Assembly: GCF_054482595.1 (NCBI RefSeq)
Contig: NZ_CM137008.1
Strand: one strand, 5' to 3'
DNA: 64,000 nt
Shown: positions 4,834 to 45,298 of the stretch, in pieces
Layout: each line of letters opens with the position of its first letter
Numbering within the stretch: position 1 is the stretch's first letter
Translations under genes and position numbers: made by a program
Notes under the pieces: model-generated
Databases searched by the model: none
Seen by the model: the letters and a program-made list of their open reading frames with translations, nothing else
What the model was told of the DNA's origin: nothing

Positions 4834-5757
4834 ATGAGTGTTTTATATCCGTTAATTCAGGCGCTGGTGTTATTTGCCGTTGCGCCGCTGCTCTCCGGTA
4901 TTACCCGCGTGGCGCGCGCCCGCTTGCATAACCGTCGCGGGCCGGGCGTGTTGCAGGAGTATCGCGACATTATCAAACTGCTGGGTCGCCAGAGCGTTGG
5001 CCCGGATGCCTCCGGCTGGGTGTTCCGCCTGACGCCGTATGTGATGGTGGGCGTCATGCTGACTATCGCTACTGCGCTGCCGGTGGTGACCGTTGGTTCT
5101 CCGCTGCCGCAACTGGGTGATTTGATCACCTTACTGTATCTCTTTGCCATCGCGCGTTTCTTCTTTGCCATTTCCGGTCTGGATACCGGTAGCCCGTTTA
5201 CTGCTATCGGCGCGAGCCGTGAAGCGATGCTTGGCGTGCTGGTCGAACCGATGCTGCTGCTTGGTCTGTGGGTTGCCGCACAGGTTGCCGGTTCCACCAA
5301 CATCAGCAACATCACCGACACCGTTTATCACTGGCCGCTGAGCCAGAGCATCCCGCTGGTGCTGGCGCTTTGTGCCTGTGCGTTCGCCACTTTTATCGAA
5401 ATGGGCAAACTGCCGTTCGACCTGGCGGAAGCCGAGCAGGAGTTGCAGGAAGGTCCGCTCTCTGAGTATAGCGGCAGCGGCTTTGGCGTCATGAAATGGG
5501 GTATCAGCCTGAAACAGCTGGTGGTGCTGCAGATGTTCGTCGGCGTATTTATCCCGTGGGGACAGATGGAAACCTTCACCGCCGGTGGGCTGCTGCTGGC
5601 GCTGGTGATTGCCATCGTCAAACTGGTGGTCGGCGTCCTGGTTATCGCGCTGTTCGAAAACAGCATGGCCCGTCTGCGTCTTGATATTACTCCGCGCATT
5701 ACCTGGGCTGGGTTTGGCTTTGCATTTTTAGCGTTCGTCTCCTTGCTGGCGGCGTGA
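4834..5757 (+). CDS. hycD: HycD, FHL complex membrane subunit (NuoH-like, 307 aa)
   Basis: Hydrophobic 307 aa protein immediately after hycC; recognised operon position. Confidence 0.93.
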   Translation: MSVLYPLIQALVLFAVAPLLSGITRVARARLHNRRGPGVLQEYRDIIKLLGRQSVGPDASGWVFRLTPYVMVGVMLTIATALPVVTVGSPLPQLGDLITLLYLFAIARFFFAISGLDTGSPFTAIGASREAMLGVLVEPMLLLGLWVAAQVAGSTNISNITDTVYHWPLSQSIPLVLALCACAFATFIEMGKLPFDLAEAEQELQEGPLSEYSGSGFGVMKWGISLKQLVVLQMFVGVFIPWGQMETFTAGGLLLALVIAIVKLVVGVLVIALFENSMARLRLDITPRITWAGFGFAFLAFVSLLAA

Positions 5758-41743: not shown

Positions 41744-42079
41744 TTATATAATCGCCATCACTTTCCAGGCGAGCCCATAGGCCAGCGCACTAAGCAGTGT
41801 TGGGATGATAATGCTGCGTGTTTTATAGAAACTGGCACCCAGTACCGCGAAGCCGACCAGCGTGGGCACGAAACGGCGTGTATCGTGCATCACTTCTGGT
41901 GCGGTAGAGACAACCAGCAGAGCGCATATCGAGGCGATGCCAATGGTGTCGAGCAAAATACCTACCGCGCCACGTTTGGTTGGGCGGGCATTACCCACAC
42001 GCAGGCGCAGCGGCAAATAGCGGAAGCAATAATTCGCTGCGCCAACCAGTAACCCAAGCAGCAGAACCTCATAGCTCAT
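41744..42079 (-). CDS. ygaH: YgaH, L-valine exporter small subunit (AzlD-like, 111 aa)
   Basis: Small hydrophobic protein; start overlaps the ygaZ stop by 11 nt. Confidence 0.88.
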
Positions 42080-42806
42080 CGGGCGCTCCTTGCCAGAATG
42101 CCTGGATTAACGCAGTGAGGCAGCCACAGACAATGCCTGCCAGAATGGCGACGGGAATAGAAAATAGCGTTACGCCTGCAAGGGCACCAACTAACGCTGC
42201 GGTAACGCAAAGAGATTGTTTGCGCTGGAAAGAGGCGAGCAGGAAACTCATAAAGAGTGCCGGAAGCATAAAACCTAATGCTGCTTCAACGGCGGGATAA
42301 CCTTGCAGCAAGCCGCTGCCGGAGAATGCCCCTATTACCGTACCAAATACCCACGATGACCATGAACTGAAGGCAATGCCGATCATCCAGTTCTCGCTCC
42401 AGCGGCGATTATTGCGTACCAGTTTTGCGGTGGCGGCGGCAAAAACCTCATCCGTCAGGCCAAACGCCCATAGGGCGGTTTTCGATTTTTGCAGACGCTG
42501 AATAATACGGCTACGCAGTGACGGGCCATACAACACATGGCGAACATCCATTGCCATGACGGTCAGTGCAGCAACCCACAAACTACTCCCGGCTGCCAGC
42601 ATCGCGGTAATGACGAACTGGCTCGCGCCTGCATAAATGATGCAGGAGAAAAAAACGCTTTCGAGAGGAGAGAATCCCAGACGGGTCGCATTCAGACCGA
42701 ACGCAAAGGCCACCGGAATATAACTAATAACAATCGGTAAACTGTCTTTGCATCCTTCCATGAAGGTCGCCGAACCAGGAGCAGGCTGTGGAGTAGGGCT
42801 TTCCAT
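42069..42806 (-). CDS. ygaZ: YgaZ, L-valine exporter large subunit (AzlC family, 245 aa)
   Basis: Polytopic membrane protein [26 protein letters not shown]...; context. Confidence 0.88.
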
Positions 42807-42929
42807 AGAGTGTACGCTTAACGATTGTTAATATTATAAATAGACTGAATGAATATCTTAACCTTATCAGACTGATGGGCTTCTTAACACCCTTATAAGT
42901 GTAAAGCCACGAAAACGGTTGCTGATTGC

Positions 42930-44114
42930 TTAATTTGCGGCTTCCTGACGATGAAAACCTCGCCACCAGACCAGTAAGTTAACCAGGGCAATTGTCGCGC
43001 CAGCCAGACAAACGCCAGCCCAACCGCCATGTTGCCAGGCTGAGGCTGAAATTAGCGAACCGGCGGCACCGCCAATAAAGTAGCTGGTCATGTAACCTGC
43101 AGTCAGGCGATTACGCGCATCAGGATGTATTCGATAAATTACCGTCTGGTTAGTGATATGCACGCCCTGTACGGTGAGGTCCAGCACCAGAATGCCGATA
43201 ATCAACGCCAGTACGGAAGTGTGACCAAACCAGATTGCCAGCCATGAAAGTAATAGCAGCAGCAGACCGAAAGTTGTGGTGTGGTGCGATTTGCCCTTGT
43301 CGGCAAAACCGCCCGCCGGACGAGCGCTCAACGCTCCGGCAGCTCCCGCAAGCCCAAACAGACCAATGACACCATCGCTGTAGTTAAAAGGTGGAGCGGC
43401 AAGCAAAAAGGCCATTGAGGTCCAGAGAATGCTGAAGTTGGCAAAGGTCAGGCAGCCCAGCAACGCGCGGGTGCGCAGGATCTTATTGCTGATAAACATA
43501 CTGAAAACGGAACCCAACAACTGTGGGTAATTGAGGTGGGTTTCTGATTTCATTTGTGGCAGACCACGCCATAATGCCAGCGCCATCAGTGCCATTAACA
43601 CCGAGGCAACCCAAAAGACGGTGCGCCAGCCGCCGAGGTTTGCCAGTAACCCGGCAACGGTTCGTGCCAGCAAGATCCCCAACAGCAGACCGCTCATAAT
43701 GGTGCCAACCACTTTGCCGCGTTTGTCCGGTGAAGCCAGCGTCGCTGCCAGTGGAACCAGAATTTGTGCCACGACTGAGAATAAACCGGTTAATGCCGTA
43801 CCGAGGATCATCATCGCCAGCGACTGACTGCTGGCGGTAATCAACATGCCGCATGCCGCCAGTAAGGTCATCGAGACAATCAGGCGGCGGCGTTCAAACA
43901 TATCACCGAGGGGAACAAGAAACAGTAGACCTGCGGCATAGCCCAACTGCGCGGCGGTAACAATAAAGCCTGCCGAACTGGCGGAAAGGGAAAAGTTACG
44001 CGCGATGGTGTCGAGCAATGGCTGGGCGTAATAGTTACTGGCGACCGCCAGACCGGTGGCGATAGACATCAGCACGATCAGCGCCGGGCTAAGCTCATGA
44101 TTAGGTTTAGTCAT
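42930..44114 (-). CDS. ygaY: YgaY, MFS transporter, intact 394-aa reading frame
   Basis: Uninterrupted MFS-like ORF (12 predicted TMS pattern) between ygaZ and proX. Confidence 0.85.
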   Translation of the reverse strand: MTKPNHELSPALIVLMSIATGLAVASNYYAQPLLDTIARNFSLSASSAGFIVTAAQLGYAAGLLFLVPLGDMFERRRLIVSMTLLAACGMLITASSQSLAMMILGTALTGLFSVVAQILVPLAATLASPDKRGKVVGTIMSGLLLGILLARTVAGLLANLGGWRTVFWVASVLMALMALALWRGLPQMKSETHLNYPQLLGSVFSMFISNKILRTRALLGCLTFANFSILWTSMAFLLAAPPFNYSDGVIGLFGLAGAAGALSARPAGGFADKGKSHHTTTFGLLLLLLSWLAIWFGHTSVLALIIGILVLDLTVQGVHITNQTVIYRIHPDARNRLTAGYMTSYFIGGAAGSLISASAWQHGGWAGVCLAGATIALVNLLVWWRGFHRQEAAN

Positions 44115-44213
44115 TATTTTTGTTCATCAGGTGATGATTAAGCTGGAAATCAATAATAGCGGATGTTGATGAATATGGGATGAAAGATAGATTGTTGAAA
44201 TGTGCGGTGTGGT

Positions 44214-44297
<84 letters not shown>

Positions 44298-44305
44298 AAT
44301 AAAAA

Positions 44306-45298
44306 TTACTTCTGCGCTGCCAACGCCTCATTCACCCAGCCATCGAACTGTTGCTGGTGGGCTTTGATCCAGCCATCAACGTGGCCCTGAATATCGCCTT
44401 CTGAGGCTTTGCCGTCATGCATAATGGCGTTCTGGGCGTTAATATCTGCCACTGGCAACTGCATAATGGCAAACAGTTTCGCTGCTGCCGGGTTTTTCTC
44501 GGCCCAGGCTTTATTGGCAACGATATGCATGGTGCTGACCGGGAAGCCGTAATTCGCGCCATTCGGCAGTTTGGTATCGGCATTTTTATCGCCCGGCAGT
44601 GCAGAGAACGGCACCTGCAACCAGACCACATCTTTCCCTGGCTTCAGCTCATTACTCACCCAGTACGGCGTCCAGGTGTAGTAAAACACCGGTTTGCCCT
44701 CTTTGTAACGACTGATGGTGTCAGCCATCATCGCCGCGTAGTTCCCCTGATTATGCGTCACGGTATTGGTCAGTTCATACGCGGCAAGCTGGTGGTTGAT
44801 CGCCCCTTCGCAGCCCCAGCCAGGGTTACAGCCAGTCAAATCCGCTTTACCGTCGCCGTTGGTATCGAACAGTTTGGCGATCTTCGGATCTTTTAGTTGT
44901 GCGATGTTGGTGATTTTGTACTGGTCGGCGGTTTTCTTATCGATCAGGTAACCCTGTGCCGCGCCGTTAACAAATACCCCTTCACGATAAAATTTCTTAT
45001 CGCCACCGGCAGCTTCGTACATGTTGTCATGCAGTGGCGTCCAGTTCACGGCGGTGAAGGTTGCATCGCCGGAAGCAAGCGAGGTGTAGCCAACGTTGTA
45101 ATCCACTTCGCTGGGTTTATTGACGGTATAACCTAATTTCTCCAGCGCACGACTGACCAGCAGTGTCTGGAAGGTTTCTTCGGTGATGGTGCTTTGAACT
45201 GGATTAACAGTAATGCCTTTGCCCGGCAGATCGGCAGCAAAAGTTTGTGTAGAGATAAGCGTGGCAAACGCTGTCGCAAAAAGTACGCTATGTCGCAT
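44306..45298 (-). CDS. proX: ProX, glycine betaine/proline ABC transporter periplasmic binding protein (330 aa)
   Basis: Recognised start [21 protein letters not shown] (signal peptide) at ATG 45296..45298; ORF track began 48 nt upstream. Confidence 0.93.

Follow-up and report, generated by a model that had tools for sequence, protein, structure and literature searches.

An intact ygaY, a YnfM-family transporter gene, in a natural Escherichia coli lineage and the 7-bp deletion that disrupts it in K-12

In E. coli K-12 MG1655, ygaY (b2681, formerly split into ygaX and ygaY; NC_000913.3, 2808316-2809493) is an annotated pseudogene of 1178 bp between proX and ygaZ, and the RefSeq label for ygaY of one K-12 derivative reads 'frameshifted'. 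The Transporter Classification Database (TCDB) lists YgaY (UniProt P76628) as 2.A.1.36.3, a member of the 'Acriflavin-sensitivity (YnfM) family' whose function is given as 'Unknown' (PMC5417439). The type member of 2.A.1.36, YnfM (b1596), exports glutarate in E. coli BL21 in a CCCP-sensitive manner (PMC12622518) and also acts as an exporter in C. glutamicum (PMC8112011). The E. coli literature on ygaY itself treats it as a pseudogene control, as an integration site (judging from titles) or in connection with H-NS bridging at proU; in K-12 its transcript is largely insulated from that of proU, and the 'crypticity' of the gene has been remarked upon (PMC10656529). Our literature search returned no phenotype or substrate for an intact ygaY allele.

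Here we analyse ygaY in a stretch of 64,000 nucleotides (hereafter the window), in which the gene lies on the minus strand in the order proV-proW-proX-ygaY-ygaZ-ygaH-emrR(mprA)-emrA-emrB. The features to which the following paragraphs refer are these, listed in the direction of transcription of ygaY:

44306..45298, minus strand: proX, glycine betaine/proline ABC transporter binding protein, upstream of ygaY (end derived from the 993-bp annotated CDS)
44115..44305, minus strand: proX-ygaY intergenic region of 191 bp, with REP/BIME-type palindromic units after proX followed by an A+T-rich leader
42930..44114, minus strand: ygaY CDS, intact, encoding a 12-helix MFS transporter orthologous to TCDB 2.A.1.36.3 (ORF, Pfam, AF2 model, RefSeq annotation)
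43876..43914, minus strand: MFS motif A in the TM2-TM3 loop, codons 67-79, VPLGDMFERRRLI (conservation table, model helix boundaries)
43846..43859, minus strand: perfect tandem 7-bp repeat GCGGCAT GCGGCAT, gene nt 256-269, codons 86-90 (alignments, MG1655 junction and translation)
42807..42929, minus strand: ygaY-ygaZ spacer of 123 bp, with a sigma-70-like TTAAGA-17-TATAAT at 42861..42833
42069..42806, minus strand: ygaZ, AzlC family, L-valine exporter subunit (ORF, annotation)
41744..42079, minus strand: ygaH, AzlD family, L-valine exporter subunit (ORF, annotation)

Both the ORF listing and a direct reading of the sequence give a single uninterrupted frame for ygaY, with an ATG start, 394 codons plus the stop and no internal stop. 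There is no in-frame start further upstream, the listed ORF opening at the first start codon past the preceding stop. The translation matches Pfam MFS_1 (PF07690) with 141.1 bits against a gathering cut-off of 33.4 (E = 5.3e-41), RefSeq annotates an identical 1185-bp CDS as 'MFS transporter' in XH990 and other genomes, and full-length orthologues of 92-99% identity are present in Escherichia, Shigella, Citrobacter and Salmonella; the frame is therefore a real gene and not a chance ORF. The original prediction of an intact 394-codon MFS gene was exact in coordinates, length and neighbours. Position between proX and ygaZ together with near-identical sequence identifies the gene as the orthologue of K-12 ygaY. 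The finding of an intact ygaY is correct and ordinary, and it was already known from reference annotation, the literature and TCDB. In the homologue search, the top match was a 596-residue protein from an ENA metagenome (P0001), which is 72% identical to YgaY with a bit score above those of the true orthologues and probably reflects a duplication or mis-assembly.

The statement in the original prediction that ygaY is a disrupted pseudogene in MG1655 proved right, and the alignment to MG1655 that it had proposed locates the inactivating lesion precisely. The sole indel between the K-12 gene and that of the window is a 7-bp gap in K-12 at gene nt 256-262, which corresponds to one missing GCGGCAT unit. 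At this site the intact allele reads CTG GCGGCAT GCGGCAT G and the window keeps both copies, whereas K-12 retains only one; the exact K-12 junction sequence is present in MG1655. Translation of MG1655 in frame 1 runs to ...SMTLLAAC and then a stop, leaving 88 residues that are truncated within TM3, as placed by the AF2 model. Outside the indel the two coding sequences are 97.5% identical in nucleotides, with 30 substitutions in the 1178 shared positions. Restoring the 7 bp in silico yields a K-12 protein of 394 residues that differs from that of the window at N210D and S263G only, the codon differences comprising 28 synonymous and 2 nonsynonymous changes. The simplest mechanism would be slipped-strand replication dropping one GCGGCAT unit in K-12, and this one-unit loss shifts the frame such that K-12 YgaY ends at residue 88, inside TM3. 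The corresponding site in Citrobacter reads GCCGCAG GCGGCAT, so the perfect repeat is a feature of Escherichia. We also considered a sequencing error in MG1655 as the source of the lesion and rejected it, because the junction is common to 354 separate assemblies, with 60 of 60 sampled being K-12-derived. We regard the identity of the gene and the nature of its K-12 lesion as practically certain.

How widely the two alleles are distributed can be read from complete E. coli genomes, 5413-5418 of 5426 of which contain ygaY. When a 72-bp query across the K-12 junction was searched against 5404 genomes, the exact junction was found in 354; the other genomes with full coverage align over 79 bp, meaning that the 7 bp are present, and about 5,050 of the 5,404 are accordingly intact at this site. 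The junction carriers that we sampled (60 of the 354) are K-12 laboratory strains without exception, among them MG1655 variants, C600, J53, DH5alpha, DH1, NCM3722, HMS174, RR1 and AG100. The 7-bp deletion marks the K-12 lineage and is restricted to K-12 derivatives among the genomes sampled. Intact ygaY is the norm in E. coli, and it is K-12 rather than the window that is unusual. With the K-12 pseudogene as the query, the block of K-12 strains is followed, as next-best matches, by wild isolates of dog, pig and human origin at 99.4% identity over 1185 bp. The wild strains D9, EC416, LR-64-2 and MINF_8D equal K-12 at every shared base and yet span the full 1185 bp. Wild isolates that carry the K-12 allele with no substitutions and with the 7 bp retained indicate that the deletion is very recent and arose on an allele that still circulates intact.

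Lesions of ygaY other than that of K-12 are rare. In S115, a human urine isolate (NZ_CP158441.1, locus 2532-2533), a 19-bp deletion, ACTGGCGGCATGCGGCATG, which corresponds to window positions 43845-43863, takes out the GCGGCAT repeat, and the gene is annotated as 'frameshifted'. This deletion is independent of that in K-12 and marks a possible small indel hotspot, or else an assembly error. In the seawater isolate PCP06021 (NZ_CM129877.1), the first 158 bp of ygaY alone match and the features annotated there are an MFS transporter and ygaH, which suggests a natural deletion that extends from ygaY through ygaZ into the ygaH region. Two further genomes with matches of odd length, H34 and H35, were set aside as candidates for additional lesions: both are intact, and the length differences lie in the REP-containing spacer.

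The original prediction had also placed the sequence outside the MG1655 lineage, and comparison of longer segments bears this out. Over 24 kb (32000-56000) the window is 100% identical to TUM18780, TUM18530, SM107, W619 and DETEC-C31, with XH990, 88COLEC, APEC37 and GF66.1 also at about 100%; identity to K-12 is 98.5-98.6% over 7.5-10 kb. The natural isolates that the window matches in this way make up a small clade and come from human, pig and chicken. At the right edge of the window (about 63781-64000, minus strand) lies the 3' end of a gene for an alpha-amylase-family glycosyl hydrolase, upstream of glaH. In XH990, whose match to the window covers 32000-56000, this gene is an intact 2253-bp CDS, whereas its counterpart in MG1655, ygaQ (b4462), is equally long and annotated as a pseudogene. 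Like the nearby ygaY, it may be functional in the lineage of the window but inactivated in K-12.

The pattern of substitution in ygaY is that of a gene under strong constraint. Compared to the Citrobacter orthologue (81% nucleotide and 92-93% protein identity), dN/dS is 0.041 at a dS of 1.15, and against the repaired K-12 sequence it is 0.024. A dN/dS of 0.04 represents strong purifying selection; ygaY is functional in the species. The alternative that the frame is open yet silent or dispensable and heading towards decay, with the K-12 lesion as the first visible case, draws on the survival of K-12 without ygaY, on the use of a ygaY deletion as a neutral control and of the locus as an integration site, on the lack of a visible consensus promoter or Shine-Dalgarno sequence upstream, and on the separate lesions in S115 and PCP06021. 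We consider it very improbable indeed, given that the low dN/dS holds across a dS of 1.15, that some 5,000 genomes, as well as other genera, have kept the gene at full length, and that lesions outside K-12 are so rare. Separately, the synonymous divergence between the window and K-12 in ygaY (~0.097) is above the overall figure of about 1.5% for the 10 kb around it; recombination in the past, or local allelic diversity, may be the cause.

The transporter that has been preserved in this way is a 12-helix MFS protein. The original prediction had called for a topology prediction; the AF2 model, built on a 93-sequence alignment (pLDDT 95.3, pTM 0.93), places 12 TM helices in the two six-helix bundles of the MFS. 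Homologues are abundant, with 1,153 clusters at 50% identity having E <= 1e-30. End to end, YgaY and E. coli YnfM are 26% identical over 409 aligned columns (E = 9e-21), which supports the assignment to the YnfM family; the homology is full-length and the two proteins have the 12-TM MFS architecture in common. At the level of curated NCBIfam models, none reaches its cut-off for YgaY: the best named-exporter models give 63-72 bits against cut-offs of 400 or more, and the DHA1 equivalogs score, in bits and all below their cut-offs, 63.1 against 401 (SotB-like PRK03545), 52 against 303 (Bcr/CflA), 51.7 against 400 (Cmx/CmrA) and 37.6 against 479 (EmrD). Sequence searches of the PDB give weak partial matches only, to GlcP, Qdr2 and EmrD. 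Foldseek searches of the PDB with the model return SotB (TM-score 0.84-0.90), MdfA (0.84) and NorA (about 0.80), followed by YajR. The top 12 matches are all SotB, MdfA or NorA, which shows the likeness of YgaY to these proteins and not membership of DHA1, and other MFS classes (SPNS2, FLVCR, G6PT and the symporter DgoT) score only slightly below the DHA1 exporters. The matches to the DHA1 structures SotB (6kkk/6kkl), MdfA (4zp0/6euq) and NorA (8tte) have TM-scores of 0.80-0.90 with an rmsd of 2.3-4 A over about 385 residues.

Using a conservation table of 93 homologues with 33-56% identity to YgaY, we could locate candidate functional residues. YgaY resembles the DHA1 antiporters in having motif A (G-x3-D-[RK]-x-G-R-[RK]) in the TM2-TM3 loop, where it reads P68-L-G70-D71-M-F-E-R75-R76-R77 and is degenerate at the first and second Gly; P68 is conserved in 100% of the homologues, G70 in 92%, D71 in 97% and R75 in 80%. 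It differs from them in its low sequence identity (15-17%) and in motif C (G-x3-G-P-x2-G-G), which is absent along with any 'GP' dipeptide in the whole protein; TM5 instead reads G137-TIMS-G142-LLL-G146-ILLA-R151. Further conserved positions are Y28, Q31 and P32 past TM1, D272 in the C-half counterpart loop of motif A, R151 in TM5 (98%), D312 (88%), Q316 and N322/Q323 in TM10, and R336 (97%). TM1 contains no conserved acidic residue, D35 not being conserved; MdfA, with its E26 and D34, differs from YgaY in this respect. The TM5 arginine equivalent to R151 and a TM10 histidine occur in both YnfM and YgaY, whereas D312, Q316, N322/Q323 and R336 of the YgaY subfamily are not conserved in YnfM; the two proteins are only distantly related. 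As D312 and R336 are not shared, the substrate of YnfM cannot be transferred to YgaY. The two genes also differ in their setting: ynfM has a divergent LysR regulator, ynfL, and no such regulator adjoins ygaY.

In order to rationalise how such a protein might work, we combined these lines of evidence into a mechanism. YgaY would operate by the rocker-switch alternating access usual for the MFS and would use the proton motive force to export a small metabolite, perhaps an organic anion. D312 in TM10 is a candidate protonation site; NorA uses a TM10 aspartate, D307. R151, D312 and the cluster formed by Q316, N322 and Q323 could then bind substrate and proton, and the intramembrane position of R151, which is common to YnfM, fits an anionic substrate. 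We modestly favour export as the direction of transport, since the nearest structures are DHA1 drug or sugar:H+ antiporters, the best full-length profiles are those of efflux proteins, YnfM is an H+-dependent exporter and the conserved residues agree with such a role. YgaY could also be an importer that takes up a nutrient by H+ symport. Symporters do occur among MFS proteins with this fold, and the galactonate symporter DgoT and G6PT obtain Foldseek scores near those of the exporters; in addition, the glucose symporter GlcP supplies, with its N-half, the best PDB match by sequence (E = 2e-8), and the antiporter motif C is missing. Set against this, DHA1 exporters account for all the top structural matches, the NCBIfam profiles that align best over the full length are those of the efflux proteins SotB-like PRK03545, Cmx/CmrA and Bcr/CflA, and the characterised member of the YnfM family exports, which makes import the unlikely direction.

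The neighbourhood of ygaY had been put forward in the original prediction as a pointer to its substrate, and for this the analysis gave no support. YgaY might act together with its neighbours, as a partner of YgaZH in the export of branched-chain amino acids or of ProU in osmoprotection. The genes lie on one strand, and their order, proVWX-ygaY-ygaZH-emrR-emrAB, is indeed kept in E. coli and Citrobacter, where the whole arrangement nrdEF-proVWX-ygaY-ygaZH-emrR-emrAB is identical. In K-12, moreover, the ygaY transcript rises modestly after hyperosmotic shock and ygaY DNA is bridged by H-NS to the downstream regulatory element of proU, even though proU is transcriptionally insulated from ygaY (PMC10656529). 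A simple scan called no terminator-like hairpin in the ygaY-ygaZ spacer, which would permit read-through from ygaY, but ygaZ has a promoter-like site of its own in the spacer. That site (10 of 12 matches to the consensus) is the only sigma-70-like site in the scanned region; the same simple scan finds no consensus sigma-70 promoter upstream of ygaY, no obvious Shine-Dalgarno sequence precedes the ATG, and the promoter and terminator scan overall gives nothing above shuffled expectation. Upstream, the REP/BIME-type units occupy 44195-44300; because of them, ygaY with its flanks matches at 9 places in the median E. coli genome, the CDS alone being single-copy. Three homologues, at 57%, 50% and 46% identity, have unrelated neighbours that include neither AzlC/AzlD nor OpuA/ProU genes, and on these grounds we rejected an inference of function from the adjacent ygaZH or proU. 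The K-12 annotation, in addition, treats YgaZH as a functional valine exporter although ygaY is inactive in that strain. We therefore judge joint action with either neighbour improbable, and any polar effect of the K-12 frameshift on ygaZH is speculation.

Taking the evidence as a whole, we hold with high confidence that the window carries the ancestral, functional allele of ygaY, a core gene of Escherichia and its close relatives that encodes a YnfM-family MFS secondary transporter of 394 residues and 12 helices, for which we infer H+-driven export, and that K-12 is exceptional through the loss, most simply by slippage, of one 7-bp unit. A bolder version would have intact YgaY export an endogenous small metabolite, e.g., an organic acid akin to but distinct from glutarate, in a physiologically relevant role that has been missed because almost all physiology was done in K-12, with the doubled GCGGCAT as a recurrent inactivation hotspot and with a K-12 frameshift that might lower ygaZH expression by polarity; this larger picture we consider rather doubtful. 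What is new here is modest and consists of the exact lesion, its restriction to K-12 derivatives, its recency, the second, independent deletion at the same spot and a structural model with candidate residues.

For practical purposes, the 7-bp lesion, being restricted to K-12, is a handy marker of the K-12 lineage. In K-12, ygaY has been used as a 'neutral' integration site and as a control locus, and work on the function of YgaY should use a wild allele such as that of the window, or K-12 with the 7 bp restored. More generally, the locus illustrates that K-12 does not stand for E. coli as a whole: the reference strain lacks a conserved core transporter on which purifying selection is strong.
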